In this document: positions 5,916 to 51,205 of the stretch, in pieces
Numbering within the stretch: the stretch's first letter is position 1
Layout of the letters: each line of letters begins with the position of its first letter
Source of the DNA: a virus
IMG/VR virus record: IMGVR_UViG_3300045988_164636
Span: 1-64,000 of that record
Strand: one strand, 5' to 3'
DNA: 64,000 nucleotides
The notes under the pieces: model-generated
What the model saw: the letters and a program-made list of their open reading frames with translations, nothing else
Database searches by the model: none
What the model was told of the DNA's origin: nothing
Position numbers and translations under genes: made by a program

Positions 5916-5922
5916 TACATAT

Positions 5923-6243: not shown

Positions 6244-6296
6244 ATAATCAAGATAAAGAGCTGATAAACTTTAAAAACAGAGAAAAGGATTTAAAT

Positions 6297-6401: not shown

Positions 6402-6424
6402 TTAAAGTACAAGTAAATGAAATA

Positions 6425-26828: not shown

Positions 26829-27050
26829 ATGAAGAAGAATGATTTTGTTTTACTATGCATATGGATTATGTTATTAATAATTCAGGTTACAATTATCATT
26901 TATGGCATTGTTCAAAATCAACAGGAAAGAGTATATTTATATGGAAAACAGCAGATAGACATATCTTTTAATAATCAGAAGATAGATAATTATGAAATAG
27001 TAGAAAAAGAAAATGGAAATGACCTTATAATCCATTTTGAAAAAATATAA
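26829..27050 (+). CDS. small membrane protein
   Basis: N-terminal TM FVLLCIWIMLLIIQVTIIIYGIV. Confidence 0.5.
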   Translation: MKKNDFVLLCIWIMLLIIQVTIIIYGIVQNQQERVYLYGKQQIDISFNNQKIDNYEIVEKENGNDLIIHFEKI

Positions 27051-27097
27051 AATTTTTGTTATAATATATATACAGTAAGAAAAGGAGAAACAAAAAA

Positions 27098-27214
27098 ATG
27101 GGCAGAACAGGAGAAAGCATTGAGAATAGAATTCATATATTAACACAAAGAGATGCTATGCGGAATGCGGCAATTATTAAGAAGTTAAATAGGCAGCTCC
27201 GCAAGATGAAGTAA
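27098..27214 (+). CDS. 38-aa basic peptide
   Basis: RBS AAAGGAGA behind class II promoter (-10 at 27060-27065). Confidence 0.4.
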   Translation: MGRTGESIENRIHILTQRDAMRNAAIIKKLNRQLRKMK

Positions 27215-27240
27215 CTTTTGATTTTTATAAAAATTTTTGT

Positions 27241-27246
27241 TATAAT
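27241..27246 (+). promoter_or_regulatory. class II promoter -10 driving tRNA island A
   Basis: TTTTTATAAAAATTTTTGTTATAATATATATG, 30 nt upstream of the first tRNA. Confidence 0.6.
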
Positions 27247-27275
27247 ATATATGTGAGTTAATTCTCACATAATAT

Positions 27276-27349
27276 GTGGATGTCGGTTAATGGTAAGCCT
27301 CCAGATCTGGGTTCTGGGTACGAAGGTTCGATTCCTTTCATCCGCACCA
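27276..27349 (+). tRNA. tRNA-Pro (UGG) with C33
   Basis: Acceptor GTGGATG/CATCCGC, D GGTT/AGCC, anticodon stem CCAGA/TCTGG with loop UCUGGGU, T GAAGG-TTCGATT-CCTTT, A73, CCA. Confidence 0.75.
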
Positions 27350-27673
27350 GCCGCAGTTGGTTATTACGAATCTGCGATGAAAACAAAATTTGTAATAAAT
27401 ATAAGAATGGTAGTTTAATAAAAATTCTGTCATATGCGGAGATGCAGGTAAAGAATCCTGAACGTTCTTATTTTAAATGTAATTACATTTTTGTCTTTTG
27501 GGTTTATTTAGACAATAAAGAAAATAAAACAGCATAAGCTACGCTATAGGAGCTGTACTGTGAGTTCAGGTAAAAACTTCGACTTTATTAACTAAGACGT
27601 GAGGGAGTTAATCGGCTTATGAAATTTCGATGACGGGAAATTTTAGGGTTGCAACCTTGATAGCAGTATATAC
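27350..27673 (+). ncRNA. ORF-free 324-nt spacer, candidate structured RNA
   Basis: No credible ORF; starts with GCCGCAGTT as does the spacer at 33677; local hairpins. Confidence 0.3.
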
Positions 27674-27750
27674 AGGGGAGTATCCGAATTGGCATAGGAG
27701 TTAGTTTCAAACACTAAATTATAAGGGTTCAAATCCCTTCTTCCCTACCA
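27674..27750 (+). tRNA. class I tRNA with anticodon CAA (Leu codon UUG), short variable loop
   Basis: Acceptor AGGGGAG/CTTCCCT, anticodon stem TTAGT/ACTAA, loop UUCAAAC, variable ATTAT, T AAGGG-TTCAAAT-CCCTT, A73, CCA. Confidence 0.7.
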
Positions 27751-27755
27751 TTAGA

Positions 27756-27986
27756 AGAGCTGGTTAGTTTAATGGCTAAAACGAAATCGAGTCGTTAAAT
27801 GATAAATTCAAGTATTCTTTTGAAATTTAGTTCATTTCAACTGAATAAACTAAATTTATTGATTTAAATGTCAAACGGATCCAATTGAGGTGCACCAATT
27901 TTTTACTGACGGATTTAGAAGTTAGAACTAAGAACTTCATTGACACAACAAGATTTAATGCGGGTTCGATTCCCGTACTGGCTCTT
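27756..27986 (+). ncRNA. tRNA-like element with about 160-nt insertion
   Basis: 5' AGAGCTG + D-like TTAG/CTAA + hairpin AACGA-AATCGAG-TCGTT; 3' GCGGG-TTCGATT-CCCGT + TGGCTCT pairing with the 5' end (2 G-U pairs). Confidence 0.3.
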
Positions 27987-27991
27987 AATAT

Positions 27992-28116
27992 GTGGAGGTA
28001 GCCCAACGGCAGAGGCAATGGACTTGTGGAGTGATCGGTATCATTAATTGGTTCAACTCCAATACTTCGCACCAAAAATCCATTCAGTGTGGGTTCGAAT
28101 CCCATTCTCCGCACCA
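27992..28116 (+). tRNA. tRNA interrupted in the anticodon loop by a 49-nt tRNA-like minihelix (28026-28074)
   Basis: Outer acceptor GTGGAGG/TCTCCGC, anticodon stem ATGGA 28018-28022 / TCCAT 28079-28083, T GTGGG-TTCGAAT-CCCAT, A73, CCA. Insert has its own acceptor GTGGAGT/ACTTCGC, T arm ATTGG-TTCAACT-CCAAT and A-CCA. Confidence 0.6.
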
Positions 28117-28147
28117 AAAGAAAAAGAAAAAAGAAAAGGAGAAAAAT

Positions 28148-28966
28148 ATGAGTTCTTATTATAGAGTATCTATTGATGATAATGAAGAAGTAGAAAAATA
28201 TTCAAATTTAATTGATTTAATTAGTGATCATGGATTTGTGAATAGTAAAGGAACAAATAAATTTTGTAGAATATCAGATGATAATTTAAAAGAAACTGAT
28301 TTTTTTACTATAAATAAAATTAAAAATCTTGCATTTGATGAAATCCTCTTAAAAAGAAAAAGTATGCAAGAAACAGATTTTAATGTAGATAATATAGTTT
28401 CCAATTCTCATATTTATAATTTAATGGAAAATAGAAATTCTTGTAGAACTATATTTGCTGATTTTGGTAATGAAAAATCTATTATTAAAAATGATTTCGG
28501 AGAAAATTCAATTAATGCTTCTACGAGTTCTAATACAATTATTCAGAATGAAAAGGCGGCATATAATATAACTGCTTCTACTGGTTTAGCCTCTATTGAT
28601 ATAGATATTAATAGTTCTAATTCTATTATAGCTAATACTGGAGATAATAGTTTAATTTCTATTGATAGTTCCAATTCAATTGCAGCAAATACTGGAGATG
28701 GCAGCTTAGTATGTGCAAAAGGAATTGGAACTGCCGCAATTTCATCTGGTGATTATTCTATTGTAAGTGCTGAAGGTAAAGACAGTTTTGCTATAGGCAT
28801 AGGTCATAATTGTATTGCTAAAGGTAAATTAAATAGTTATCTTATTCTTGCAGATTGGAAAGATAATAAATTAATTGATTTAAAAATGCACATAGTCGAT
28901 AATATAAAAATAAAAGAAGACGTTTATTATACGTTAAAAGATGGAGAATTTGTTGAGGTTAATTAA
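28148..28966 (+). CDS. beta-solenoid-like repeat protein (N[TI]G-x2-S repeats), paralog of 29232-30218
   Basis: Start moved to ATG 28148 after AAAAGGAGAAAAA (upstream part overlaps tRNAs); shared C-terminus AEGK[DN]SFAI...IKEDVYYTLKDGEFVEVN. Confidence 0.65.
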   Translation: MSSYYRVSIDDNEEVEKYSNLIDLISDHGFVNSKGTNKFCRISDDNLKETDFFTINKIKNLAFDEILLKRKSMQETDFNVDNIVSNSHIYNLMENRNSCRTIFADFGNEKSIIKNDFGENSINASTSSNTIIQNEKAAYNITASTGLASIDIDINSSNSIIANTGDNSLISIDSSNSIAANTGDGSLVCAKGIGTAAISSGDYSIVSAEGKDSFAIGIGHNCIAKGKLNSYLILADWKDNKLIDLKMHIVDNIKIKEDVYYTLKDGEFVEVN

Positions 28967-29028
28967 ATGGGAGTCAATGATTGTTTTTGTTTAAGAGTTT
29001 TATTGATTGAGAAGGAGTAAAATATTGC

Positions 29029-29235
29029 ATGATTATTAAAAACCAAGTATATGTACTCTCAAATTATGCAACAAGTGAATTACAAAAGATTTTAGACTGC
29101 CACGCAAAAGCTGGATATAAATTAGTTTCAACAGAAATGGCGAAAAACAGATACGATGTCGATGTGATGTATCTTTTCTTTGCGGGTGAATTTGATGAGA
29201 ATAAAAAGTTAAGTTTGACAGGAGAAAATAAGTGA
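29029..29235 (+). CDS. hypothetical small protein (DUF4177-like?)
   Basis: 68-aa ORF; segment AGYKLVSTEM...VMYLFF. Confidence 0.4.
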   Translation: MIIKNQVYVLSNYATSELQKILDCHAKAGYKLVSTEMAKNRYDVDVMYLFFAGEFDENKKLSLTGENK

Positions 29236-30218
29236 AAGGTTTAAAAGGTTTTAAAGGCTTTAATAAGGATTTTACTTGTCAAGGAAAACAGTATGCTGAA
29301 AATACTATTTTTAAAGAAAAAGATGCTGAAATTAATAAAAGTGGTATACATTTCTGTGTAAATCCATTCGATGTATTAGAATATTATGGATTTGTTAATG
29401 AAAATGCTGAATTAAATGAATTCGCAGAGGTAGAAGCATTACATGACTGCAAGACAGACGATGACAAGGAATATGTCACAAAAAAATTGAAAATTGGTAC
29501 AAAAATAGGCATCGAAGGATTAATAAAAGCATTTGTTGATTTTACGTTAGCAAAAACAGAAAGTATAGTAACGAACATAAATTCTCGATCAATATCAACA
29601 AACACAGATCTTGAGTCAGTGACAATGAATACAGGTTTTTGTTCAGGAGCAATAAATACAGGACGTGATTCAATAGCAATGAACAAGAGTAGTTATTCAG
29701 TAGCAATGAACACAGGTAATCGTTCTGTATCAACGAGTATAGGTCTTCAATCAGCGGCAATGAATACTGGTATCTATTCTGCGGCAATGAATACAGGACT
29801 TAATTCAGCTTCTATTAATACTGGCAATTTTTCCGTATCCATGAATACAAGTTATCGTTCAGGAACATTGAACACAGGGGACAATTCAGCTTCTATAAAT
29901 ACTGGTGATTTTTCAGTTTCCACGAATACTGGTAATTGTTCGGTAGCGATGGGTAGTGGTGATTATTCGGTAGCAATAAACATCGGTGATTGTTCGATAG
30001 CAAACGCTGAAGGAAAAAATAGTTTTGCAATTGCGACAGGAATTAATAGCAAAGCAAAAGGAAAATTTGGATGTTATATTGCTATTGCAGAATGGAAGCA
30101 AAAAAATATCGGAGAATATGAATTCATTGATTTCAAATCACATAAAGTTGATGGAAAAATTATAAAAGAAGATGTTTATTATACATTAAAAGATGGAAAA
30201 TTTGTTGAGGTTAATTAA
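29232..30218 (+). CDS. repeat protein: KGFxKDFTCxGxQY N-terminal domain + about 15 NTG-x2-S-x-[AS] repeats
   Basis: GTG start after AGGAGAAAA; repeats SVAMNTGNRSVSTSIGLQSAAMNTGIYSAAMNTGLNSASINTG...; C-terminus matches 28148-28966. Confidence 0.7.
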   Translation: MKGLKGFKGFNKDFTCQGKQYAENTIFKEKDAEINKSGIHFCVNPFDVLEYYGFVNENAELNEFAEVEALHDCKTDDDKEYVTKKLKIGTKIGIEGLIKAFVDFTLAKTESIVTNINSRSISTNTDLESVTMNTGFCSGAINTGRDSIAMNKSSYSVAMNTGNRSVSTSIGLQSAAMNTGIYSAAMNTGLNSASINTGNFSVSMNTSYRSGTLNTGDNSASINTGDFSVSTNTGNCSVAMGSGDYSVAINIGDCSIANAEGKNSFAIATGINSKAKGKFGCYIAIAEWKQKNIGEYEFIDFKSHKVDGKIIKEDVYYTLKDGKFVEVN

Positions 30219-30433
30219 ATGGAAATAGAAAAAGCAGAAAAAATAGCAGAAAAAATAGACCGATTAAAAAAATGGAAAAAATTGAGCGGTGCTTATGTGA
30301 TTTAGGAGCAATAAAAGTAGATAACATAATTATTTCTTTTTATTTAGAGCCTGATTTAGGAAAAATAATAAAAAAATATTATGAAGAAAAAATATCCTCT
30401 TTAAAAAAAGAAATAGAGAGTTTTGAATAAAAA

Positions 30434-30606
30434 TCAACAGTGGCGAAATAGGTAGACGCTAGTATGGCTGTTGTAATGACAGCAATAAGTTTACTTGCAG
30501 AAACGGCATGAGATACAGAGCGAGATAATTCAAACCTATAGTAAATAGGCATTAAAAATAATGGGAACGAGATTATTATGTATGGTGCAAATCCATACCT
30601 GTTGAT
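30434..30606 (+). ncRNA. tRNA-Leu-like element with about 90 extra nt and no CCA
   Basis: Acceptor TCAACAG/CTGTTGA, classic Leu-type D arm TGGCGAAATAGGTAGACGC, T arm GTATGG-TGCAAAT-CCATAC; internal hairpin GCTGT-TGTAATG-ACAGC. Confidence 0.4.
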
Positions 30607-30705
30607 TATTAAGTCGAGTCTTCCGACTTTAAATGGAGTAGGTTATTAGGTTTGTATGTTTTTCGCCCGTAACTGCAATCACAACAGAAAAACATACTTT
30701 AATAT

Positions 30706-30782
30706 ACGAGTGTGGTGCAATTGGTAGACACAGAGGCTTCAAGTACCTCCATTTCTGGGTTCGAATCCCAGCACTTGTACCA
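30706..30782 (+). tRNA. class I tRNA with anticodon CAA and Leu-type D arm
   Basis: Acceptor ACGAGTG/CACTTGT, D GTG-CAATTGGTAGA-CAC, loop UUCAAGU, variable CATTT, T CTGGG-TTCGAAT-CCCAG, A73, CCA. Confidence 0.7.
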
Positions 30783-30787
30783 AATAT

Positions 30788-30864
30788 GCGGAGATGGCTT
30801 AGCTGGTTAAAGCATCTGACTGATATTCAGAAGATCTTGAGTTCGAATCTCAATCTCCGTACCA
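30788..30864 (+). tRNA. tRNA-Ile (GAU)
   Basis: Acceptor GCGGAGA/TCTCCGT, anticodon stem TCTGA/TCAGA with loop CUGAUAU, T TTGAG-TTCGAAT-CTCAA, CCA. Confidence 0.85.
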
Positions 30865-30869
30865 TATAT

Positions 30870-30964
30870 GGAGGCGTAACCCTAATTGGTAAGGGATCGG
30901 TTTGCTAAACCGAGAGTAATCAGTTTATACTGGTGTGATGGTTCAAATCCATCCGCCTCCGCCA
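30870..30964 (+). tRNA. tRNA-Ser (GCU), class II
   Basis: Acceptor GGAGGCG/CGCCTCC, loop UUGCUAA, long variable arm, T GATGG-TTCAAAT-CCATC, G73, CCA. Confidence 0.85.
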
Positions 30965-31230
30965 ATAATATTAAGAGCTGTGAATATAGGCGGGAAAGAG
31001 AGATTTTTAACAACATATCTCGTTAGTTGTGGACATGGAAACTGCTCCTATGGCTGAAGGTTTCTTCTTAATATTTTCAATAGAAAAAGGCTGATGACCT
31101 GCGGAAGATTGAAATGATATATATCTCCGCCGTGCTAAAACGTATTAGATGACTATTGAGAGGTTACTTATTATTCTGGATTGCTCGCATTGCGGAATAA
31201 GTAATCAAAAGACAATCCAGTTTTATATAT
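30965..31230 (+). ncRNA. ORF-free 266-nt spacer with group-I-intron-like core motifs
   Basis: GGCGGGAAAG 30989-30998 and CTCCGCCGTGCTAAAA 31125-31140 resemble the P4 pairing (ACGGGGAAACC / AATCCCGTGG) of the true intron at 56458/56489. Confidence 0.3.
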
Positions 31231-31320
31231 GCCGACCAAATCTGTACGGCTACAGAGCTCGTCTTGAAAACGATGCGTGGGTTAATAGCCCATGGGGATC
31301 GACACCTCTGGTCGGCGCCA
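31231..31320 (+). tRNA. tRNA-Ser (UGA), class II, atypical T loop
   Basis: Acceptor GCCGACC/GGTCGGC, D TCTG/CAGA, loop CUUGAAA, long variable arm, T loop AUCGACA (A54), G73, CCA. Confidence 0.6.
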
Positions 31321-31455
31321 AGTACGTCAATTCATATAATTAATTCCTTTTCTGTGATGAGGAGAGTCTATTTTAGACTCTCCTTTATCCTTTTTGGTTA
31401 AAGTTGTTCAATATTATTTCTTAACTTTTGATTAAATAAAAAGGAGTGAAGTTTT

Positions 31456-31659
31456 ATGGATATGGTATTATATGCTCTTTTAAACAAGAGAATAAAAACA
31501 ATGTCATCTTCAATAAAAACAATTACAATAGATGAAAACAATCATTTAATTGTTATTTTATCTAATGATACAAGAATAGATGCGGGAGCTTTGCCTACTG
31601 GTGACCAGACCGCCGCAATAACAAATGAAGCGATTGATAAAATTTTTTCAGAAATTTAA
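31456..31659 (+). CDS. 67-aa paralog of the tail-fibre N-terminus
   Basis: MDMVLYALLNKRIK...NNHLIVILSNDTRIDAG matches MDMTLYALLNKKIK...ANHLICTMSDNTIIDAG of 37372-39072; RBS AAAGGAG. Confidence 0.6.
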   Translation: MDMVLYALLNKRIKTMSSSIKTITIDENNHLIVILSNDTRIDAGALPTGDQTAAITNEAIDKIFSEI

Positions 31660-31738
31660 TATTCCTATTTCATTTTTCTAAAAAATTTTGTTATAATTAT
31701 TATAGTAAAAAAGAGGAGATTATAAATCTTCCTCTAAA

Positions 31739-31927
31739 ATGAGAAAGGAAATTAAAAATATGAAGAAAAATTATGAGTATAAAATAGATAAAAAAGAAAG
31801 AATATTAGCAATAGTTAAGAAAATAAAAATTGCCGCAGATTGTGGATTATTAATTCTGAATGCTATACTCTTGATAAATAAAATCTCAATATTATATATA
31901 AATTTTTTGAAGAAAAGAAAAACTTGA
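31739..31927 (+). CDS. small membrane protein
   Basis: 62-aa ORF (or ATG 31758) with C-terminal TM. Confidence 0.45.
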   Translation: MRKEIKNMKKNYEYKIDKKERILAIVKKIKIAADCGLLILNAILLINKISILYINFLKKRKT

Positions 31928-32021
31928 CAGCAAATTATCAAAGAAGATTAATTATTCAATTTCATTTTTTTAAAAATTTTTGTTATAATTATTATAGTAA
32001 AAGAGAAAGGAAATTAAAAAT

Positions 32022-32444
32022 ATGAGGTTATGGCATACGGATTTAATATCTGTTCTTCCAAAGGAACAGCTTGTAGGTCAATGGAGAGAACTTTCCGCAA
32101 TAGCAGGTTCAATTAAGCAGAAAGGTACTCCCAACCATCTTCTTGTTAATTTTGTAATGGATTATGATTTAGACCATTTTATTAATTATGCTCGTATGAT
32201 AAGAGCGGAAATGACAAAAAGAGGATACAGAACTGCTAATTCTGTTTGGGAAAAGATAGCTTCTCTAAAAGAAGATTATACTCTTATAAAAGACAAAGAA
32301 GTTTATCCTGATATTATGAATAGTCAATATCTTTCAATTTGTTATGAAAATCTTCTGGAAAAATTCATTAGAGGTGGCATATCAGAAGAGGATATGAACA
32401 ATATAGAAGAAGTTTTTAAAGAAGCATTTGAAGTAAATATGTAA
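32022..32444 (+). CDS. pyrimidine-dimer DNA glycosylase (T4 endonuclease V-like)
   Basis: MRLWHTDLISVLPKEQLVGQWRELSAI follows the endo V N-terminal pattern (L..L....L..E.REL). Confidence 0.6.
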   Translation: MRLWHTDLISVLPKEQLVGQWRELSAIAGSIKQKGTPNHLLVNFVMDYDLDHFINYARMIRAEMTKRGYRTANSVWEKIASLKEDYTLIKDKEVYPDIMNSQYLSICYENLLEKFIRGGISEEDMNNIEEVFKEAFEVNM

Positions 32445-32512
32445 AAAAAATCATTTGAAAAAATAAAAAATTTTTGTTATAATATATATACAATAAAGAA
32501 AGGAAATAAAAA

Positions 32513-32746
32513 ATGCAGACGATTTATAAGATGAAGTTAAATACAATTAATGATGTTAAGTCTTTTGTCGATGCGGCAAATGAATATAAGGGAAGAATTA
32601 CTGTCCGCAATATGCACTACGCTGTAGACGGAAAGTCAATCATGGGAATTTTTTCAATTGATTTGTCGGGTATTCTTGATGTAGAATTTGATAATGAACC
32701 CAGTAATGAAATACTTGATTTATTTAAGAGTTGGAGAGTTAAGTGA
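32513..32746 (+). CDS. HPr-like domain protein lacking the His15 site
   Basis: AVDGKSIMGIFSIDL resembles the HPr Ser46 region (KSIMG..SL); no HARPA motif. Confidence 0.45.
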   Translation: MQTIYKMKLNTINDVKSFVDAANEYKGRITVRNMHYAVDGKSIMGIFSIDLSGILDVEFDNEPSNEILDLFKSWRVK

Positions 32747-33198
32747 AGGAAGTTCATATTTTAATAGGAATCCCCGCAAGTGGTAAATCTACTTTTGCTA
32801 AAAATTTTGTTTTCTCTCATAAAGGGTACAAAATTGTATCAACAGATGATATAAGATGGAAGTTATTTGGAGATGCAAGTATACAGGGAAATCCTAAGAT
32901 GATTTTTGCTATTGCTCACAAAGAAATTATGTCTTATTTAGATAAAGGATATAATGTTATATTTGACGCAACAAATATATCAAGAAAAAATCGAGTAAAT
33001 CTTATTAATTTTTTAAAAGAATGTGAAGTAGAAAATGTTGTGGCGGATTATTTTCCTGTTACAATAGATGTTGCTCTTGAGAGAAATCAGCAAAGAAAAA
33101 GACACGTTCCAGAAAAAGTTATTCATAAGATGTTTGGCAAAATTGAGAAGCCTAAATATGAGGAAGGATTTTCAGAAATAAATTGCCACAACGATTAA
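32743..33198 (+). CDS. P-loop kinase (polynucleotide-kinase / AAA_33-like)
   Basis: GIPASGKST Walker A, STDDIR, FDATN. Confidence 0.6.
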   Translation: MKEVHILIGIPASGKSTFAKNFVFSHKGYKIVSTDDIRWKLFGDASIQGNPKMIFAIAHKEIMSYLDKGYNVIFDATNISRKNRVNLINFLKECEVENVVADYFPVTIDVALERNQQRKRHVPEKVIHKMFGKIEKPKYEEGFSEINCHND

Positions 33199-33222
33199 TT
33201 TGAAAAAATAAAAAATTTTTGT

Positions 33223-33228
33223 TATAAT
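33223..33228 (+). promoter_or_regulatory. class II promoter -10 driving tRNA island C
   Basis: AAAAATAAAAAATTTTTGTTATAATATATATACAG. Confidence 0.6.
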
Positions 33229-33281
33229 ATATATACAGTTTGAGAAAGAAATAAAAATTAAAAAATCTCAAACTTAGATAT

Positions 33282-33357
33282 TGCGGGATGATGCAGAGGT
33301 AACATGTTAGCTTAGTAAAACTAATTACAGAGGGTTCAAGTCCTTCTCCCGCCACCA
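33282..33357 (+). tRNA. tRNA-like gene with expanded (8-10 nt) anticodon loop and U1-C72 mismatch
   Basis: Acceptor TGCGGGA/TCCCGCC, D ATGC/ACAT, anticodon stem TTAG(C)/(A)CTAA with loop UUAGUAAA, T GAGGG-TTCAAGT-CCTTC, A73, CCA. Confidence 0.5.
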
Positions 33358-33597
33358 GTGGATTTTCATATTCCGCTTTCTACGAGCGATAGCTTGCATG
33401 AGAAGTAGACGGGACCGGTCATCAATGATTGCAAGGTTGAGAACTTCCGCTTCAATTCCTTTAAATAGTTATATCTCCTGCGGGAATATGACAGCCTTGA
33501 AATTGCGATAGAGAGGTAGGTTTTATGGGAAGATAGCATAAAAAATGCACTTGATTGCAATGAGGGATATTGGTTGAAATCCAATTCTTCTCACCAA
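33358..33597 (+). ncRNA. ORF-free spacer ending in a tRNA-like T arm + acceptor + CCA
   Basis: 3' end ATTGG-TTGAAAT-CCAAT TCTTCTC A CCA; candidate 5' partners GAGAAGT (33400) or GAGAGGT (33511), but no canonical D or anticodon arms. Confidence 0.3.
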
Positions 33598-33600
33598 TAT

Positions 33601-33676
33601 GGAGATGTAGCTCAGATGGTAGAGCAACGGGCTTTTAATCCGTGAGCCAAGGGTTCGAACCCCTTCATCTTCACCA
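33601..33676 (+). tRNA. tRNA-Lys (UUU)
   Basis: Acceptor GGAGATG/CATCTTC, D GCTC/GAGC, loop CUUUUAA, T AAGGG-TTCGAAC-CCCTT, A73, CCA. Confidence 0.9.
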
Positions 33677-34102
33677 GCCGCAGTTTCTTATATAATTAAT
33701 CTGAGGGACTAAATTAAAATTGATTATATAGAGAGAATAAACATGGATTTAGTAGATAAACTACCACCGATTGATTAATTCAAGTATGTGGCTCGTGGCT
33801 TAAACTCTCTACAAAAAATAAGGCAAAGTAATCTACAATATGGTATTATCTGTACCAAGGTCTTAACCTCGAGACCTTATAAATAAAGAAGGAGATAATT
33901 GCTCTACTCGTAGTCTCATTAGCTTTAAAAGCAACAGAACGAGGACTAACTAAGTGATTCATGAGTCACTGGTTAGGTTCAGTAGTAGATTTAGCCTGTA
34001 TCGGCTTGGTGTACGAGAAATTGCGTCATAGACGTGGTTTCTGAGGCACGCTGGAGAATTTAGACATCCAGAGGAAGTAGATCCTACTACTGAATTAAAT
34101 AT
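33677..34102 (+). ncRNA. 426-nt ORF-free, highly structured RNA candidate
   Basis: Helices TTCAGTAGTAG/CTACTACTGAA (11 bp, enclosing about 95 nt), AAGGTCT/AGACCTT, CTGGA/TCCAG, CGTG/CACG, TATATAAT/ATTATATA; contains TAAGGCAAAG...CAATATGG. Confidence 0.4.
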
Positions 34103-34179
34103 GGCACCATCTTCTAATAAGGTCAGGAAACCGGTCTTTCACATCGGTAATATGGGTTCAAATCCCGTTGGTGTCACCA
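34103..34179 (+). tRNA. tRNA-Glu (UUC)
   Basis: Acceptor GGCACCA/TGGTGTC, anticodon stem CCGGT/ATCGG, loop CUUUCAC, T ATGGG-TTCAAAT-CCCGT, A73, CCA. Confidence 0.8.
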
Positions 34180-34184
34180 AATTT

Positions 34185-34263
34185 ACGTCATTAGCTCAGC
34201 TGGATTAGTAGCAACCGCCTTCTAAGCGGTAGGTCATAGGTTCGAATCCTATATGGCGTGCCA
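34185..34263 (+). tRNA. tRNA-Arg (UCU)
   Basis: Acceptor ACGTCAT/ATGGCGT, anticodon stem ACCGC/GCGGT, loop CUUCUAA, T ATAGG-TTCGAAT-CCTAT, G73, CCA. Confidence 0.85.
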
Positions 34264-34303
34264 ATCAAAAGAATTTTAATAATTATGGTTATTGATTCTG
34301 TTT

Positions 34304-34379
34304 ACCGGTATAGCTTAGTCGGTAAAGCGTCGGACTGTTAATCCGTAGACCGTAGGTTCAAGTCCTACTACCGGTGCCA
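34304..34379 (+). tRNA. tRNA-Asn (GUU)
   Basis: Acceptor ACCGGTA/TACCGGT, loop CUGUUAA, T GTAGG-TTCAAGT-CCTAC, G73, CCA. Confidence 0.85.
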
Positions 34380-34560
34380 ATGTCGTAGTTTGTATGTTTA
34401 CAGCGACTTTAAATAAATTGATTAGACATTCTATCAGGCTCATGTTGTTAGCACCTTTTGTGAAATTAGCTAATCTAAGTTAGCCGCCATCCTGATAAAA
34501 ATAAAAACTTTGCGAACAAAAGAGTGTAAGCGGATAATGCTTAGACATTTCCGTGTATTA
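34380..34560 (+). ncRNA. ORF-free 181-nt spacer with nested hairpins
   Basis: ATCAGG...CCTGAT stem (34431/34489) enclosing GCTAA/TTAGC; no tRNA cloverleaf. Confidence 0.25.
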
Positions 34561-34636
34561 GCTGGAATAGCATAATTGGTGATGCAACGCTCTTGTAAAG
34601 CGGAGACTGTAGGTTCGAGTCCCACTTCCAGCACCA
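34561..34636 (+). tRNA. tRNA-Thr (UGU)
   Basis: Acceptor GCTGGAA/TTCCAGC, D GCAT/ATGC, loop CUUGUAA, T GTAGG-TTCGAGT-CCCAC, A73, CCA. Confidence 0.85.
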
Positions 34637-34641
34637 TTTAT

Positions 34642-34715
34642 GTGGATATAGTTCAATGGTAGAATGCTAGCCTTCCAAGCTAGATATGCGAGCTCAATTC
34701 TCGTTATCCACTCCA
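34642..34715 (+). tRNA. tRNA-Gly (UCC)
   Basis: Acceptor GTGGATA/TATCCAC, anticodon stem CTAGC/GCTAG, loop CUUCCAA, T GCGAG-CTCAATT-CTCGT, U73, CCA. Confidence 0.8.
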
Positions 34716-34918
34716 TCAAGAACACCTCTTTCACTCTAAAAAGTTAAATTCTTGGAATTAATGATCAAACAACATAAAATCCGATGTTTTGTATTGGTAG
34801 TTGAAAAATAAAAAGGAATAATATTAGCAACAATATTATTATACTTATATTTTTTGAGTGCCATAGTTTTAGGTTAATAGAGTGGAGAATAAAAGGTTGC
34901 TATTTTATTCTCCGATAT

Positions 34919-34992
34919 TGCACAGTCGCCAAGTGGCAAAAGGCAGTAGACCTTGACTCTACCATTCGCTAGTTCGAATCTAGCCTGTGCAG
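34919..34992 (+). tRNA. tRNA-Gln (UUG) with C33, no encoded CCA
   Basis: Acceptor TGCACAG/CTGTGCA (U1-A72), Gln-type D arm TCGCCAAGTGGCAAAAGGC, anticodon stem GTAGA/TCTAC with loop CCUUGAC, T GCTAG-TTCGAAT-CTAGC, G73. Confidence 0.75.
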
Positions 34993-35287
34993 GACCAACG
35001 TCTTTAGTAACCTCCCCGTGGTGTTGGTTGGGTAATTCTAATACTAAAGTTTCGATAGAGGACACTTCCTCATAAAGCGGCTACAGCAAATATTCTTATA
35101 AATTGGATTATGAAAAATTTTTTCCGCTTTGTTAATTTATTTAAGACGGACAAACAGCAACTTCAAATGATAAATTATTTTTATGTTAAGCCTCCTTCCA
35201 TCCGTCTTGAAAATAGAAAGAGCCTTACAGCAAATATTCTTATAATACTTTTTATTATATTAATTAGGCTCTTGTATTTACAAAAAA

Positions 35288-35327
35288 TGCGGAATGATAA
35301 TATAAAAATCATTCCGCATTTTTTAAT
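35288..35327. terminator. bidirectional terminator hairpin
   Basis: AAAAAATGCGGAATGAT-loop-ATCATTCCGCATTTTTT. Confidence 0.75.
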
Positions 35328-35344
35328 ATAGAAAGGAATTAACT

Positions 35345-35623
35345 ATGGTATCATTTGAATTAAAAGAAAATCAAACTGGATATGAAGTCATAGAAGATTA
35401 TTTTGTAAAAAAATTTAATTTTCGTTTAGGAATTTATGAACAATATCTTGTTGCTTTGGAAATATCATATGATAATGTTTATTGGACAAGAGTTACAGAT
35501 ATATTACAAACAGATTCAATGTATTTTGAATGGGGTATAGATTGGTATGAAGGTGAAAAATATATTCATCTTTTAGGTGTTAAAAATATAGAAGATATTG
35601 ACATTATTGGAGAAGGAGTTTAA
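35345..35623 (+). CDS. hypothetical protein
   Basis: 92-aa ORF, RBS AAAGGAA. Confidence 0.55.
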   Translation: MVSFELKENQTGYEVIEDYFVKKFNFRLGIYEQYLVALEISYDNVYWTRVTDILQTDSMYFEWGIDWYEGEKYIHLLGVKNIEDIDIIGEGV

Positions 35624-48831: not shown

Positions 48832-50022
48832 ATGTTAAACCCCAAAACTCAAGAAAGAGAACTTTGTTATGTAGTTGAAATTAATGATATTCAGCCTATT
48901 CCTAATTATGATAGAGTTGAATTAGCAACGGTAAATGGTTGGCATATCATCGTTCAGAAGAATCAGTTTAAGGTCGGAGATAAGGCTGTTTATTTTGAAG
49001 TAGATTCAAGAGCACCTGAAAGTGCGGAATTTGATTTTCTTGCCAAGAGAAAGTATAAAATTAAGACTTTAAAAATGTGCGGCTGCATTTCTCAAGGATT
49101 ACTTATGTCTTTTGCAGATTTTGGTTTTGCAGAAGATGAATATAATATAGGAGATTTTTTAACTAAGAAATTAAATGTTACTTATGCTGATGATGAAGAT
49201 AATGCAAGAAAGGCACCTTCCGCAGATAAGTATAAAAAGATGGAAATGCGTCATAAAAAACTTTTTAAAAATTCTTTTGTAAAGAAAGTTATGCAGTATG
49301 AAGTTGGACGTAAGATAATGTTTGTTTTCTTTGGTAAGAAGAAAGATAAGAAGTCAAGTTTCCCTAACTGGGTTGTGAAAACTGATGAAGAAAGAGCCGA
49401 AAACCTACCCTATCTATTTAATAGCAAGAATAGAGAATCTATGCATTGGATGGTTACAGAAAAGATTGATGGAACTTCTGCAACATTCACTTTGAAGAAG
49501 ATAGGTAAGCATAAGTACGATTATCGAGTATGTTCAAGAAATGTATGTTTTGATAAGCCTGATAAGAAATGCTTCTATGAAACAAATGTGTATACTGAAA
49601 TTGCAGAAAGATATAATATGGAGCAGAAACTTAAGCAGCTATTTGAAATAAGTGAAGATATAGTTTTTGTTACAATTCAAGGCGAAATATACGGGAAAAA
49701 AATCCAAAAGAGAGATTATAATATGGAAGGAACAGATCTTGCTATTTTTAATGTTATTTTTGGTTATAAAGATGGTTCAACAGAAAGGTTAAATCCTCGT
49801 GAAATGGAAGTCATTATGAAGATATATAATCTTCCTACTGTTCCAGTCCTTGATTATAACTTTACTTTACCTGTAACTTGTGATGAAATGTTAGAATATG
49901 CGGCAAGTGAAAAATCAAAAATAGACGGCGGTATGCGTGAAGGTGTTGTATTAAGAAGTTTTGATGGTAAGCAATCTTTTAAGGCTGTATCAAGAGATTT
50001 CTTACTCAAATATCATAGTTAA
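48832..50022 (+). CDS. ATP-dependent RNA ligase, Rnl5 (DraRnl/NgrRnl)-type
   Basis: N-terminal OB-like ...VVEINDIQPIPNYDRVELATVNGWHIIVQK; motif I KIDGTS; IQGEIYG; EGVVLR...FKAVS. Confidence 0.8.
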   Translation: MLNPKTQERELCYVVEINDIQPIPNYDRVELATVNGWHIIVQKNQFKVGDKAVYFEVDSRAPESAEFDFLAKRKYKIKTLKMCGCISQGLLMSFADFGFAEDEYNIGDFLTKKLNVTYADDEDNARKAPSADKYKKMEMRHKKLFKNSFVKKVMQYEVGRKIMFVFFGKKKDKKSSFPNWVVKTDEERAENLPYLFNSKNRESMHWMVTEKIDGTSATFTLKKIGKHKYDYRVCSRNVCFDKPDKKCFYETNVYTEIAERYNMEQKLKQLFEISEDIVFVTIQGEIYGKKIQKRDYNMEGTDLAIFNVIFGYKDGSTERLNPREMEVIMKIYNLPTVPVLDYNFTLPVTCDEMLEYAASEKSKIDGGMREGVVLRSFDGKQSFKAVSRDFLLKYHS

Positions 50023-51204: not shown

Positions 51205-51205
51205 A

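Follow-up and report, generated by a model that had tools for sequence, protein, structure and literature searches.

Introduction

Theta ribozymes have been described in a tRNA-adjacent context, and an RNA ligase family is enriched in the phages that carry them (PMC10879173). ROOL and GOLLD are further known RNAs against which a tRNA-linked phage RNA can be set. The phage region analysed herein bears on these systems because its inter-tRNA gaps hold a member of a folded RNA family, a possible new kind of intron and a predicted self-cleaving ribozyme, all adjoining a Ro60-like gene.

Two tRNA operons and a cassette mosaic

The window is a 64,000-nt stretch (positions 1 to 64,000 of IMG/VR record IMGVR_UViG_3300045988_164636) from a large, AT-rich, uncultivated phage; among its named relatives, a contig from a Bacilli MAG bin is the closest. 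Two tRNA arrays span 27.2-35.3 kb, where ARAGORN placed 12 canonical tRNAs, all on the + strand and with the borders given in the initial annotation. About 2 kb of noncoding DNA separates them; the spacers listed earlier as ORF-free total ~2.1 kb and hold only mechanical ORFs shorter than 90 aa, several of which overlap tRNAs. Both arrays are flanked by strong promoter-like sites and terminators, with their whole content on the + strand:

27218 to 27246, + strand, promoter-like site at the start of operon 1, 5' of tRNA-Pro (TTGATT-17-TATAAT, TG upstream)
31361 to 31383, + strand, intrinsic terminator at the end of operon 1 (terminator scan, scan coordinates 31359-31385)
33200 to 33228, + strand, promoter-like site at the start of operon 2 (TTGAAA-17-TATAAT with TG)
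35289 to 35317, + strand, terminator hairpin at the end of operon 2, within the 35057 to 35344 stretch

The TTTTTGTTATAATATATAT box of the first promoter-like site is also present in relatives, and an equivalent of the first terminator, with compensated changes, occurs in the related phages L003 and L004. The region is organized as two long promoter-to-terminator tRNA operons (27218 to 31361 and 33200 to 35289), the contents of which would be co-transcribed. Indels relative to L001, L002, L003, L004 and L037 coincide with tRNA borders. In the sister phage L037, a ROOL RNA (257.6 bits) fills the slot between tRNA-Tyr and tRNA-Asn, and skipping-rope and RAGATH-18 RNAs are present in the tRNA islands of other relatives. 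In distant relatives, the conservation of several spacers exceeds that of coding DNA, and covariation is abundant in one of them.

On balance, we lean toward reading the inter-tRNA sequence as a mosaic of separate RNA modules that are co-transcribed with the tRNAs and released by tRNA processing. The modules are of four kinds, namely the E6 family, insert-bearing tRNAs, aberrant or decaying tRNAs, and conserved elements together with weakly supported filler. Release would most likely proceed through the events that mature the tRNAs, with RNase P acting at the 5' end of the tRNA that follows and 3' processing acting on the preceding one, while one module would be freed by a built-in theta/HDV-like ribozyme. 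The suggestion in the initial annotation that these spacers are not junk holds: structured RNAs derived from or linked to tRNAs account for several of them.

A widespread phage RNA family

The strongest features of the region are the E6 family, the minihelix insert of a tRNA-Leu gene and the theta ribozyme. The first lies at the end of operon 1, next to an unusual tRNA-like gene:

30979 to 31230, + strand, E6, short form of a complex-folded phage RNA family (covariation; 19-mer search)
31231 to 31320, + strand, non-canonical tRNA-Ser(UGA)-like gene (ARAGORN at lowered threshold only)

E6 belongs to a family of folded RNAs that is widespread in phages but has no entry in Rfam 15, a search of which gave no match at E<=10. 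An invariant 19-mer (CTGCTCCTATGGCTGAAGG, 31042-31060) has 28 exact matches in IMG/VR and 12 in GTDB, 3 of them coding chance hits, which gives ~35 copies from a search that recovers only those family members keeping exactly that word. Across four sequences, none of the 84 predicted pairs is broken and 21 carry compensatory changes; a 9-bp pseudoknot (31164-31172 with 31196-31204) is retained in four different sequence versions. Among 34 distinct sequences, 92.7% of the cells are paired, against 78.5% when shuffled and at most 54% with partners slid, and both sides changed in 21 of 31 pairs, counts that rest on an alignment fitted to the model. Covariation in alignments with related phages, which the initial annotation had named as a check, is abundant for E6. 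A tRNA end lies 13-49 nt upstream in all seven contexts examined, and the family shares the niche of ROOL and GOLLD. E6, the best supported of the spacer RNAs, does not regularly accompany DUF2828 genes, having been found at 2 of 79 DUF2828 loci (3 counting one weak match).

The tRNA-Ser(UGA)-like gene that follows has a 5-bp hairpin in place of the D arm, the anticodon loop CUUGAAA and a long variable arm, ends in GCCA, and covaries with L003 and L004 in every helix.

tRNA genes with tRNA-like inserts

Three genes combine a tRNA scaffold with additional sequence:

27992 to 28116, + strand, E3, tRNA-Leu(UAA) with a short variable loop and an interrupted anticodon loop (Rfam tRNA; ARAGORN intron mode)
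28026 to 28074, + strand, 49-nt tRNA-minihelix insert of E3, flanked by CTT and AAAA in the anticodon loop
27756 to 27985, + strand, E2, free-standing tRNA-like gene with acceptor AGAGCTG/CTGGCTCT, D arm and T arm, no CCA
30434 to 30606, + strand, E4, tRNA-like scaffold with acceptor TCAACAG/CTGTTGA, Leu-type D arm and TGCAAAT T loop

E3, just beyond the spacers listed earlier, matches the Rfam tRNA model over 27992-28113 (40 bits) with a 52-nt insert, and ARAGORN in intron mode resolves 27992-28116 as a tRNA with a 49-nt insert. The latter carries a 7-bp acceptor (GTGGAGT/ACTTCGC), a discriminator A followed by CCA, and a T-arm-like ATTGG-TTCAACT-CCAAT. E3 is 100% identical to its counterpart in L001 and 95% identical to that in L004, where the minihelix stem is retained via compensatory changes (GCGAAAT/ATTTCGC), and insert-free alleles of this tRNA occur in L003 (5600-5675) and L007 (532-607).

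A nested-insert scan identified minihelix inserts of 45-51 nt in 11 unique relatives, with 3-5 pair types at each of the seven acceptor-stem positions among the 11 inserts; the strict scan gave 36 matches, compared with 0-1 in shuffles. Inserts follow nt 32, 34 or 35, and whenever the "acceptor ... N-CCA" unit is removed, a canonical loop of 7 nt remains, with U33 and R37, a regularity that is partly built in because the scan demands an intact outer stem and loop and is blind to decayed examples. A larger version containing an HNH homing endonuclease gene follows the same boundary rule inside the tRNA-Glu of L001 and L004, of which the tRNA-Glu in the window is the uninterrupted allele. A C.A mismatch and C33 are already present in the L004 exon pair, as the decay of some interrupted genes would predict.

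ARAGORN in intron mode reads E2 (27757-27985; MFE z-score -2.4) as a tRNA with a 156-nt insert, in agreement with the layout first described for 27756-27986 (acceptor, D arm, hairpin, ~160-nt insertion, T arm). No full-length homolog was found in the comparison with relatives; the collinear blocks TAGTTTAA, AATCGAGT and TTTAGTTCATTT shared with L001 7830-7935 tie E2, free-standing and without an ORF, to the tRNA-like insert that carries the HNH gene in L001 and L004. E4 has both the Leu-type D arm and the T arm originally noted, plus an acceptor stem, and is expanded by ~40 and ~38 nt at the anticodon-loop and variable-arm positions; this long form is also present in L007 (90%), and a short form without the expansions in L001 and L004.

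The tRNA-like inserts of these genes resemble introns of a new kind. The earlier idea of intron-containing tRNA-derived RNAs fits E3 well and E2 and E4 more loosely, while permuted tRNA-derived RNAs, proposed alongside, were not found among the spacers. The minihelix would be an intervening sequence excised at its own tRNA-like ends, the 5' cut being made by RNase P and the 3' cut falling after CCA, with the tRNA-Leu halves held by the tRNA fold. Such inserts are probably excised in this way, after which the phage RNA ligase would reseal the tRNA, although no bacterial enzyme is known to cut precisely behind an internal CCA, and in Bacillus-type hosts CCA inhibits RNase Z.

Aberrant and decaying tRNAs

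Two further genes in operon 2 retain a recognizable tRNA form:

33282 to 33357, + strand, aberrant tRNA with an 8-nt anticodon loop, TTAGTAAA (Rfam; ARAGORN at low threshold)
33527 to 33596, + strand, E9, degenerate tRNA-like gene; acceptor, T arm and CCA present, D and anticodon arms poor

Both reach the Rfam tRNA gathering score (33282-33354, 34.3 bits; 33527-33593, 37.5 bits), and E9 is also called by ARAGORN at low threshold. By alignment, the positional counterpart of the former in L003 and L004 is tRNA-Met(CAU), and the mosaic map places E9 outside L001 and L002, from which it is missing. We classify the two as aberrant or decaying tRNAs. The stretch 33569-33596, initially taken for an isolated module, is the 3' part of the complete degenerate gene E9. 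More generally, three of the listed spacer pieces are tRNA-like genes in their own right, and the tRNA parts noted in the spacers exist but belong to tRNA-like genes that are complete, though interrupted or aberrant, rather than standing alone.

A theta ribozyme after tRNA-Gln

34993 to 35049, + strand, predicted theta-type minimal HDV-like self-cleaving ribozyme (sub-threshold Rfam matches; covariation)

The tRNA-Gln gene lacks an encoded CCA, and G1 of the ribozyme lies immediately 3' of its discriminator base. Sub-threshold Rfam matches to drz-agam-1 (30.6 bits, E 0.005) and HDV-F-prausnitzii fall exactly at this tRNA 3' end. The helices are P1 (34993-34999/35023-35029), P2 (35002-35009/35042-35049) and P3/L3 (35010-35022), with C35038 in J4/2, and P1 and P2 show full covariation with L004. 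On this sequence evidence, 34993-35049 is a theta ribozyme for which self-cleavage is predicted. Its tRNA context agrees with that of published theta ribozymes, and the ligase type reported as enriched in their phages is likewise present, at 48832-50022 (PMC10879173).

The initial annotation missed all three of the strongest features named above, this ribozyme included, which lie at or just beyond its spacer borders.

Conserved elements and filler

The remaining noncoding sequence comprises the following:

27350 to 27673, + strand, E1, beginning with a GCCGCAG hairpin directly 3' of the tRNA-Pro CCA
30607 to 30705, + strand, E5, spacer between E4 and tRNA-Leu(CAA), by itself 88% identical to L004
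33358 to 33526, + strand, E8, 79-88% identity in L001, L002, L037, L007 and L008 (z-score ~0)
33677 to 33851, + strand, E10, ~175-nt almost invariant element from the upstream tRNA's CCA to the first base of tRNA-Glu
33852 to 34102, + strand, E11, strongly folding element with a 12-bp long-range stem (z-score -4.1)
34380 to 34560, + strand, E12, spacer between tRNA-Asn and tRNA-Thr, 96-97% identity in L001, L002 and L037 (z-score ~0)
34716 to 34917, + strand, E13, hairpin-rich spacer between tRNA-Gly and tRNA-Gln (z-score -3.5; one hairpin loop AGCAAC)
35057 to 35344, + strand, hairpin-rich stretch with a repeated ACAGCAAATATTCTTATAA loop motif and a terminator hairpin at its end (z-score -6.3)

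The window contains four copies of GCCGCAGTT, compared with an expectation of 0.06; two copies, at 27350 and 33677, are those recorded earlier as directly 3' of a tRNA CCA, and two lie on the - strand in a coding-like context. The 33677 copy opens E10, which begins with the GCCGCAG hairpin and also contains a predicted 17-bp helix. Nine copies of E10 are 90-96% identical, with 93-96% identity even in phages whose genes are only ~70% identical. E5 lies inside a 429-nt block (30566-30994) that is 95% identical to L004, compared with ~70% for coding DNA.

This above-coding identity of E10, E3 and 30566-30994 could reflect recent lateral cassette exchange and not purifying selection. Related phages would swap modules as cassettes, with tRNA borders as the break points, a pattern with which the indel positions are consistent; the changes within E10 are wobble-compatible on the + strand only. 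E10, E11 and E13 are conserved elements under the mosaic reading. In the window, E11 is flanked by a decayed 5' tRNA-Glu fragment and the intact tRNA-Glu; its homologs in L006-L008 (85-89%) have another tRNA context and show no compensatory changes. E13 is indel-free inside a block that shares 79.5% identity with the distant phage L004, with three compensatory pairs. The 35057-35344 stretch is conserved in L001, L002 and L037, and the 73-aa ORF called in it is doubtful.

E1, E8 and E12, seen in close relatives only, gave no structural signal in the MFE z-score test and are tentatively regarded as filler. E1 is conserved solely in the close relative L001 (90.5%; z-score -0.4) and had no match in Rfam.

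A Ro60-like protein and RNA-repair genes

35625 to 37073, + strand, DUF2828+DUF7788 protein with a Ro60/TROVE+vWA fold (Pfam; AlphaFold; Foldseek)
32743 to 33198, + strand, AAA_33/KTI12-type P-loop kinase between the two operons (Pfam E 2.5e-22)
48832 to 50022, + strand, RNA ligase, PHA02142 OB fold plus PF09414 (Pfam)

The Ro60/DUF2828-like assignment of the first protein was borne out both by Pfam and by the predicted structure (pLDDT 86.8), for which the top 13 Foldseek matches in the PDB are all Ro60 (E 1.8e-8 to 2.5e-5). In 50 of 79 phage loci the homologs have a tRNA island alongside, a link between the DUF2828 gene family and the tRNA islands of phages. The accompanying proposal of Y-RNA-like spacers found no such backing: none matches the Rfam YrlA or Y RNA models, the best score of 14.9 bits lying below the gathering score of 69, and membership in the Y RNA family is unsupported. 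The Ro60-fold protein probably acts on the tRNA-like RNAs of such islands, with no one spacer singled out.

The phage also carries RNA-repair-type genes, comprising the AAA_33 kinase, the RNA ligase and a phosphoesterase. The ligase is a candidate for the enzyme that seals tRNA halves, and the kinase, the synteny of which is conserved in L002-L004, is a candidate RNA 5'-kinase.

Phage relatives and mosaicism of the tRNA region

The genome is phage-like, with a G+C content of 25-30% and tail, lysis, topoisomerase and ligase genes, and it appears to have no close or cultured relative among GenBank phages, since blastn against 50,697 records returned distant matches to tRNAs only, or nothing. We compared the window with metagenome-derived phage loci, specifically L001 from IMG/VR (~90% nucleotide identity), the Logan relatives L002 and L037, and L003 (ENA) and L004, the coding DNA of which is just ~70% identical to that of the window. 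The L004 contig was binned with a 'Bacilli bacterium' MAG. Pairwise maps revealed that insertions, deletions and replacements among these phages fall at tRNA borders, and that the identity of some non-coding blocks greatly exceeds that of the neighboring genes. Specifically, 33665-33843 shares 96% identity with L003 and 93% with L004, and identity to L004 reaches 95% over both 27986-28123 and 30566-30994, 79.5% over 34708-35045 and 77% over 31013-31320.

Organization of the tRNA arrays

The observation that tRNA genes are interleaved here with long spacers free of genes held throughout, and the region proved richer than first described. ARAGORN called 12 canonical tRNAs from 27276 to 34993, all on the + strand and with the same borders as in the initial annotation, and the spacers total ~2.1 kb, containing only short mechanical ORFs, several of which overlap tRNAs. 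Two strong promoter-like sites and two terminators bracket the tRNAs and spacers, which therefore constitute two long + strand operons:

27218-27246, + strand, promoter-like site with an extended -10 box
31361-31383, + strand, terminator
33200-33228, + strand, promoter-like site with an extended -10 box
35289-35317, + strand, terminator

We consider it likely that the spacers are co-transcribed, cassette-like RNA modules that would be set free by tRNA processing, and the best explanation of their content is that they include a new, ornate RNA family, intervening sequences that mimic tRNAs, and a theta ribozyme.

At gathering score, tRNA was the sole type of Rfam match in the window. Beyond the canonical genes, such matches covered 27992-28113 (40 bits), 33282-33354 (34.3 bits) and 33527-33593 (37.5 bits), and the intron mode of ARAGORN read 27757-27985 as a tRNA with a 156-nt insert and 27992-28116 as one with a 49-nt insert. 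The modules at 27756-27985, 30434-30606 and 31231-31320 had no Rfam tRNA match and were recognised only through the intron or low-threshold modes of ARAGORN or through covariation. The initial annotation had seen isolated tRNA parts in several spacers; its descriptions of 30434-30606 and 27756-27986 were accurate, and the label of intron-containing tRNA-derived RNAs is apt. The T arm, acceptor and CCA that it placed at 33569-33596 are likewise present, yet they form the 3' part of a whole degenerate tRNA-like gene (33527-33596), which is missing from L001 and L002, rather than an isolated piece. The spacer start GCCGCAGTT, noted as shared by two spacers, occurs four times in the window, versus 0.06 expected; two copies directly follow a tRNA CCA, and the other two lie on the opposite strand in a coding-like context. 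The Rfam scans that had been suggested at that stage returned no Y RNA, group I intron, RNase P or tmRNA in the window, in either gathering-score or E-value mode, and 6S, SRP, ROOL and GOLLD RNAs were absent in the same modes. ARAGORN's tmRNA mode also found none, and the corresponding Rfam match was just a 15-nt T-arm fragment.

A complex-folded RNA family in phage tRNA islands

Comparative evidence indicates that the module E6 (30979-31230, + strand) is a member of a new, widespread and complex-folded RNA family missing from Rfam, of which the structure is predicted from covariation. In an alignment of the window, L001, L003 and L004, helix after helix is retained through compensatory changes, and RNAalifold yielded 84 pairs, with 21 changed on both sides and 0 broken. 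A 9-bp pseudoknot (31164-31172 with 31196-31204) is held in four sequence versions, those of the window, L003, L047 and L066. Further, we built a covariance model of the E6 5' core and used it for realigning 34 distinct sequences; in this alignment, which is fitted to the model, 92.7% of cells pair, versus 78.5% in shuffles and ≤54% with slid partners. Double-sided changes appear in 21 of 31 pairs, and 0 of 500 shuffles reached any observed measure.

The invariant 19-mer CTGCTCCTATGGCTGAAGG has 28 exact matches in IMG/VR plus 12 more in GTDB genomes, and three of these look like coding chance matches; the flanks of the real matches have in common the conserved blocks GAATATAGGCGGGG, TCGTTAG, GGTGAAATGATATATC and GTGCTRATACGTATYAGA. 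The copies take three forms:

Short forms, ~250-300 nt: the window clade, L047 and L066
Long forms, ~470-560 nt: L040, L041, L048, L051 and L058
Very short forms, embedded in a tRNA-Leu-like scaffold: L043, L044, L053, L056 and L063

In all seven contexts examined, a tRNA ends 13-49 nt upstream of the E6 copy. In the window, E6 is followed on its 3' side by a further tRNA-like gene and then by the operon terminator:

31231-31320, non-canonical tRNA-Ser(UGA)-like gene, all helices covarying

E6 had no Rfam 15 match even at E ≤ 10 (461-nt search), and neither had a long form of the family. E6 also had no copy among the 50,697 GenBank phage records at blastn sensitivity, and no description in a literature search that covered few subscription journals. 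Thousands of candidate viral RNAs without names have been catalogued (PMC10690425), and pieces of the family may be among them.

The niche of E6 is that of ROOL and GOLLD, RNAs of unknown function that are "often near tRNA islands" of phages (PMC5737381, PMC12286853). Like them, E6 occupies tRNA islands in phages sampled from gut and rumen and has a complex multi-helix fold with a pseudoknot. GOLLD can also carry tRNAs inside, and L037, a sister phage of the window, has a full ROOL RNA in the same array (794-1382, 257.6 bits), between tRNA-Tyr and tRNA-Asn. In contrast to these RNAs, the E6 copy of the window is short, at ~250 nt. We rejected the idea that E6 is a diverged or truncated ROOL or GOLLD: L041 contains a ROOL (5852-6477, - strand, 323 bits) together with a separate E6 copy, the sequences are unlike by eye, and neither the window (at gathering score and E ≤ 10) nor a long-form E6 relative matched ROOL (RF03087) or GOLLD, in a covariance-model test that the ROOL detections in L037 and L041 show to work. 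Hence, the phage tRNA-island niche appears richer than ROOL and GOLLD alone, and E6 offers a fresh target for structural and functional work.

Other known RNAs share these arrays. A skipping-rope RNA in L039 and a RAGATH-18 RNA in L007 (3595-3664) lie within tRNA arrays, and known Rfam RNAs in the tRNA islands of related or E6-bearing phages (L039 8964-9046 and 6371-6455, L041 187-276 on the - strand, L052 3464-3788) comprise skipping-rope, a c-di-GMP-I riboswitch, a partial OLE-like match (52.9 bits) and tmRNA.

Proposed intervening sequences that mimic tRNAs

In the gene at 27992-28116 (+ strand), the acceptor stem, both the D and the T arm and the anticodon stem (ATGGA/TCCAT) are normal, and the anticodon loop is 56 nt long. 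The same tRNA occurs without the extra 49 nt in L003 (5600-5675) and L007 (532-607), and the loop there, CTTAAAA, identifies it as tRNA-Leu(UAA). The insert (28026-28074) falls exactly between CTT and AAAA and is itself a predicted tRNA minihelix: an acceptor stem of 7 bp (GTGGAGT/ACTTCGC) is joined by a short linker to a 5-bp stem capped by a T-like loop of 7 nt, and a discriminator A and CCA follow. L004 retains the acceptor stem of the insert by compensatory changes (GCGAAAT/ATTTCGC).

We scanned 2.3 Mb of phage loci for the same design, an acceptor, T arm, N and CCA nested inside a 5-bp stem, with the criterion that removal must leave a 7-nt loop with U33 and R37. An earlier, looser scan had given 113 matches versus 42 in shuffles, and only the stricter version, which requires the T arm, was used; it returned 36 matches (27 unique) versus 0-1 in shuffled controls. 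Eleven unique inserts measure 45-51 nt. Eight of them interrupt tRNA-Leu(UAA), which in L089 and L150 is a bona fide class II Leu tRNA; one is in tRNA-Gln(UUG) and two are in CUA suppressor tRNAs. Insertion occurs after nt 32, 34 or 35, and the restored loop is canonical every time, in a scan that could find intact examples only. Each acceptor-stem position of these inserts shows 3-5 pair types.

Nested elements of greater size exist as well, ranging from 63-71-nt reduced tRNAs up to complete tRNAs. Complete or nearly complete tRNAs appear to be nested in the anticodon loop of another tRNA-like stem at L004 7546-7620, L123 19695-19770 and L038 7163-7233, with outer loops of CTTTTAA, CTTCTAA or CTTTCAC after removal, and some of these nested-tRNA matches may be due to chance. 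In L001 (7830-8703) and L004 (8303-9172), an 870-nt element splits tRNA-Glu(UUC) at CTTT|CAC. This element has tRNA-like ends (acceptor GGTAGAA/TTTTACC+G+CAA in L001, GATGGAA/TTTTATC+A+CCA in L004) and carries a 246-aa HNH endonuclease ORF with 82% identity between the two phages, and the uninterrupted tRNA-Glu is present in the window (34103-34179), L002, L003 and L037. The outer tRNA-Glu of L004 has a stem mismatch and C33 and is called by neither ARAGORN nor Rfam, and its exons look impaired. Within the window, the free-standing module at 27756-27985 has collinear blocks in common with the 5' part of the HNH-bearing element and looks like a putative ORF-less relative of it. In the module at 30434-30606, two expansions enlarge a tRNA scaffold; L007 has the long form as well, and L001 and L004 have an expansion-free form.

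We read the inserts as mobile intervening sequences. Their tRNA-like ends point to excision through two cuts, a 5' one by RNase P and a 3' one after CCA. The anticodon loop would then be left with 3'-OH and 5'-phosphate ends, a substrate for RNA ligase, and could be resealed by the phage RNA ligase. The window encodes candidates for a set of repair enzymes:

32743-33198, candidate P-loop kinase
48832-50022, candidate RNA ligase (OB fold and PF09414)
51149-51760, candidate phosphoesterase

Judged from these features of the sequence, the tRNA-mimic inserts are probably removed with the help of phage RNA repair enzymes. The fuller proposal is offered tentatively, as a possibility that we would not yet call likely: that they belong to a previously undescribed class of intervening sequences, tRNA mimics that would be excised by tRNA end-processing enzymes and the phage ligase, with the DUF2828 protein maybe acting as an RNP partner. 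As jointly proposed, the class would range from the 45-51-nt acceptor/T-arm minihelix ending in N-CCA, through reduced tRNAs, to HNH-bearing versions, and removal would proceed neither by self-splicing nor by a splicing endonuclease. Archaeal and eukaryal tRNA introns that proteins splice are marked by a bulge-helix-bulge where exon and intron meet and depend on a splicing endonuclease; no EndA-like gene was found among the 29 window ORFs scanned with Pfam. A literature search that covered few subscription journals found no description of tRNA-like or nested introns of this sort.

The closest known parallel is the group I intron of bacterial tRNA-Leu(UAA), which in cyanobacteria is inserted between U34 and A35. 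The host tRNA is the same, the site U34/A35 is the same in the window and L150, the inserts are likewise present in some alleles and absent from others, and a larger insert relative has a homing endonuclease gene. The differences lie in the inserts themselves, which at 45-51 nt are far below the size of a group I core, fold as tRNA minihelices ending in N-CCA, and vary in site (nt 32, 34 or 35) with boundaries that track the tRNA-like ends. The two window inserts are 49 nt and ~156 nt, versus a group I catalytic core of at least 200 nt (P3-P9 and a G-binding site), and Rfam gave no Intron_gpI match at E ≤ 5 over 27000-35400. Insert splicing, if it occurs, must depend on proteins or on RNase P. 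The tRNA regions of phages T4 and T5 offer a second comparison. The T4 cluster contains the stable RNAs 'species 1 and 2' (rnaC, rnaD), which are co-transcribed with tRNAs and released by tRNA processing, and HNH endonuclease genes are interspersed in the T5 region. In blastn against the 50,697 GenBank phage records, which gave tRNA matches or nothing, the modules here show no sequence relation to either; in contrast to them, they are larger, more numerous and partly nested inside tRNAs.

One alternative, which we regard as rather unlikely, is that the inserts are purely selfish mobile DNA, spread by HNH homing or recombination, that lands in anticodon loops, inactivates accessory tRNA genes without splicing and leaves these genes to decay, with 27756-27985, 33527-33596 and a tRNA-Glu fragment at ~33845-33880 as the debris. 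The variation between alleles would fit this, as would the highly mosaic arrays, the HNH ORF inside the larger element, at the same site and 82% identical in distant phages, the impaired outer tRNA-Glu of L004, and the decayed tRNA-Glu 5' fragment that sits beside an intact gene in the window. What speaks against it is the condition of the interrupted genes: outer loop halves and anticodon stems are intact in 11 distinct lineages and the stems covary, with the bias that the scan recovers intact cases. Further, the insert boundaries coincide with the tRNA-like ends at whichever loop position they occupy, for which simple disruption gives no reason, and the ORF-less 45-51-nt inserts hold an exact 7+5-bp minihelix geometry via compensatory changes. 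Two of the hosts are also CUA suppressor tRNAs, which a recoded phage would need.

If the excision proposal is true, it would constitute a new route of tRNA splicing in the bacterial world, one that reuses RNase P and RNA-repair enzymes and possibly times the supply of tRNA-Leu(UAA) or of suppressor tRNAs. It would also give a concrete role to the RNA ligase, kinase and phosphoesterase sets of many large phages, and define a new type of mobile element aimed at anticodon loops, including those of the suppressor tRNAs used for code switching.

A predicted theta ribozyme adjoining tRNA-Gln

Theta ribozymes are minimal HDV-like ribozymes that abut the 3' ends of phage tRNAs (Kienbeck et al. 2024, PMC10879173). 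The segment 34993-35049 (+ strand) matches the published examples and is predicted to be self-cleaving. G34993 directly follows the discriminator G34992 of tRNA-Gln, which has no encoded CCA, and the predicted fold comprises P1 (GACCAAC/GTTGGTT), P2 (CTTTAGTA/TACTAAAG), P3 (ACC/GGT) with L3 TCCCCGT, a GGG for P1.1, and C35038 in J4/2. It thus combines nested P1, P1.1, P2 and P3 with the J4/2 C, a G at +1, and a site abutting the 3' end of a phage tRNA. The L004 copy is fully compensated (P1 GGTTTGC/GCAAACT, P2 AAGAGTA/TACTCTT). Rfam gave sub-threshold matches to HDV-family models, drz-agam-1 at 30.6 bits versus a gathering score of 37 (E 0.005) and HDV-F-prausnitzii at 20.3 versus 44; a model dedicated to theta ribozymes may be absent from Rfam. 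No further convincing ribozyme copy came out of a generic scan of the window, and the two spacers starting with GCCGCAG were rejected as further HDV-like ribozymes, as they are without P3/L3 and without P1.1.

The resemblance extends to the nested P1/P1.1/P2/P3 design without P4, to a host-range context of Bacillota, and to the position of G1 right after the discriminator of a tRNA without encoded CCA. An RNA ligase carrying an OB module at its N-terminus, of the 'DRB0094 family', is enriched among phages bearing theta ribozymes (PMC10879173), and we take the window ligase, which has such a module, to be of this 'DRB0094-type'. The partner tRNA differs from the published cases in being an ordinary tRNA-Gln(UUG) rather than a suppressor, and L001 and L002 depart from them in having CCAA between tRNA-Gln and the ribozyme. 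The window is without these four bases (~9346-9350 in L001), so that the predicted ribozyme would release a CCA-less tRNA here, and in the relatives the tRNA would end in CCAA.

A Ro60-fold protein linked to tRNA islands

The product of 35625-37073 consists of DUF2828 and DUF7788 in Pfam. Searches of the PDB with the single sequence and with a profile returned nothing, and it is not detectable as TROVE by sequence. Its AlphaFold model (pLDDT 86.8, pTM 0.81) matches Ro60 over the full length: each of the top 13 PDB matches is a Ro60 structure, 12 of them with TM-scores of 0.5-0.6, and the structural matches include the Ro60 of Thermus phage phiLo (9kop, 9l5y). Because the sequence and profile searches were empty, the relation between DUF2828 and Ro60 is visible only by fold comparison.

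We assembled 79 IMG/VR loci (L079-L157) with DUF2828 homologs 34-46% identical. A tRNA lies ≤3 kb upstream of the DUF2828 gene in 50 of the 79, ≤3 kb downstream in 26, and anywhere within ±10 kb in 66, with up to 25 tRNAs in that interval. By comparison, of 24 control loci picked through an unrelated kinase gene, just 2 have any tRNA. The DUF2828 family is therefore systematically linked to tRNA islands. Closer to the window, the order tRNA-Gln, ribozyme, DUF2828 is kept in L001, L002, L004 and L037. We rejected E6 as a general partner of DUF2828: among the 79 loci, its model recovered the window, one other locus and one weak match (2, or 3 with the weak match). Six E6 loci, several in unrelated phages, have a DUF2828 gene nearby. 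DUF2828 homologs number >6,000 at E ≤ 1e-20, and the tRNA-island linkage together with the Ro60 fold makes the function of this large family directly testable.

The initial annotation had proposed that the spacers include Y-RNA-like transcripts. This proposal is only partly borne out. The Ro60-like fold and the linkage to tRNA islands are real; Y RNA membership fails the only available test, and no RNA partner can be assigned. Specifically, YrlA (Rfam RF02553) had no match at gathering score in the whole window and none at E ≤ 5 over 27000-35400, and the best score was 14.9 bits, at 27933-28036, versus a gathering score of 69 (391-nt search). The spacers do lie beside a Ro60-fold gene, which is 0.6-8 kb downstream of them, and, as in the YrlA-Ro60/Rsr and phiLo Ro60-Yrl systems, that gene accompanies tRNA-like non-coding RNAs in a genome with RNA repair genes. 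The differences are that the window has no YrlA match, that no module co-varies in presence with the protein, and that the protein is a DUF2828 protein in which TROVE is not detectable by sequence. As one part of the joint proposal on the inserts, the Ro60-fold DUF2828 protein may be the RNP partner of one tRNA-like RNA.

Hairpins with (C)AGCAA loops recur just upstream of the Ro60-like gene, at 35057-35344, 34800-34830 and, in L004, ~9800-9860; ACAGCAAATATTCTTATAA occurs twice, AGCAAC is present in the spacer module E13 (34716-34917), and TTCAGCAATTA is found in L004. These loops could be a candidate protein-binding site. A doubtful 73-aa ORF (35110-35331) overlaps the terminator.

The remaining spacers

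Structural signal in the other spacer modules is uneven. E10 (33677-33851) is nearly invariant in nine copies and has a predicted 17-bp helix, in which the few substitutions are compatible with wobble pairing only when read on the + strand. Strong folding (z -4.1) is predicted for E11 (33852-34102), which recurs in L006-L008 in another tRNA context, with no compensatory changes. A decayed copy of the tRNA-Glu 5' part (GGTATTATCTGTACCAAGGTC...) follows E10 at 33845-33880, ~250 nt upstream of the intact tRNA-Glu, which suggests an origin of E11 through insertion or recombination at this gene. E13 has no indels versus L004 and shows three compensatory pairs. E1 (27350-27673), E8 (33358-33526) and E12 (34380-34560) have MFE z-scores near 0 and no structural signal, and their homologs are found only in relatives ~80-97% identical. 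These z-scores are a poor guide, since E6 and the tRNAs themselves score near -1, and we therefore do not take the weak values of E1, E8, E10 and E12 as proof of no structure.

Two further readings of the spacers have to be set against that of cassette-like RNA modules. That one or more of them are Y-RNA-like partners of the DUF2828 protein, bound as in Rsr-YrlA or Thermus phage Ro60-Yrl1/Yrl2 for exonuclease recruitment or gating or for quality control of tRNA-like RNAs, strikes us as unlikely. There is precedent for phage Ro60 proteins binding Y-like RNAs from genes immediately upstream (PMC12135203), and the full-length structural match, the position of tRNAs upstream of DUF2828, the synteny with tRNA-Gln and the ribozyme, and the E6 loci with DUF2828 nearby would all suit such a role. 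Against it stand the YrlA scores, the lack of a Y-type terminal stem, in which the 5' and 3' ends pair, with a conserved Ro-binding bulged helix when the spacers were viewed by eye, and the phylogenetic distribution, in which no module travels with DUF2828 across phages, E6 being so scarce among its loci and the other modules confined to close relatives. The linkage itself may simply reflect a protein that acts on the tRNAs themselves. Less probable again, to the point of being improbable, is that most of the spacer sequence is filler made up of leaders, trailers, promoter and terminator signals and recombination scars, with its conservation due to recent ancestry or cassette exchange. Promoter-like and terminator-like motifs do occur inside the region, and E1, E8 and E12, along with the near lack of compensatory changes in E10 and E11, could be accommodated on these terms. 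Filler would not account for the extensive covariation of E6 and its spread across unrelated phages, for E10 being 96% identical where the flanking genes are ~70% with wobble-compatible changes on one strand only, or for E13 being kept indel-free in L004. The ribozyme and the insert-bearing tRNAs are, moreover, specific designs, and the sister phage has a bona fide ROOL in the equivalent slot.

Unusual tRNAs and neighboring genes

Bacterial tRNA-Leu has a long variable arm as a rule. At 27674-27750 and 30706-30782 of the window, L003 5342-5418 and L004 5561-5637, tRNA genes combine a Leu anticodon (CAA, UAG or UAA) and a Leu-type D loop with only a short variable loop and, at 75-77 nt, a class-I shape. 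Behind its promoter, operon 2 begins with a tRNA gene (33282-33357) whose anticodon loop has 8 nt, reading TTAGTAAA in the window and TTCGTAAA in L037. This gene also occurs in L002 and L037, and its position is occupied by a CAU (Met-type) tRNA in L001, L003 and L004. It could serve in quadruplet or frameshift decoding, or be dead.

Two protein-coding features complete the picture. Two paralogous genes within tRNA operon 1 (28148-28966 and 29232-30218) encode products with Ser/Asn/Thr-rich repeats and a common C-terminal region, the second having a DUF7666 domain. Farther along, a GIY-YIG endonuclease gene (56547-57302) lies between gyrase B-like (54831-56366) and gyrase A-like (57807-60176) genes, a typical spot for a free-standing homing endonuclease.
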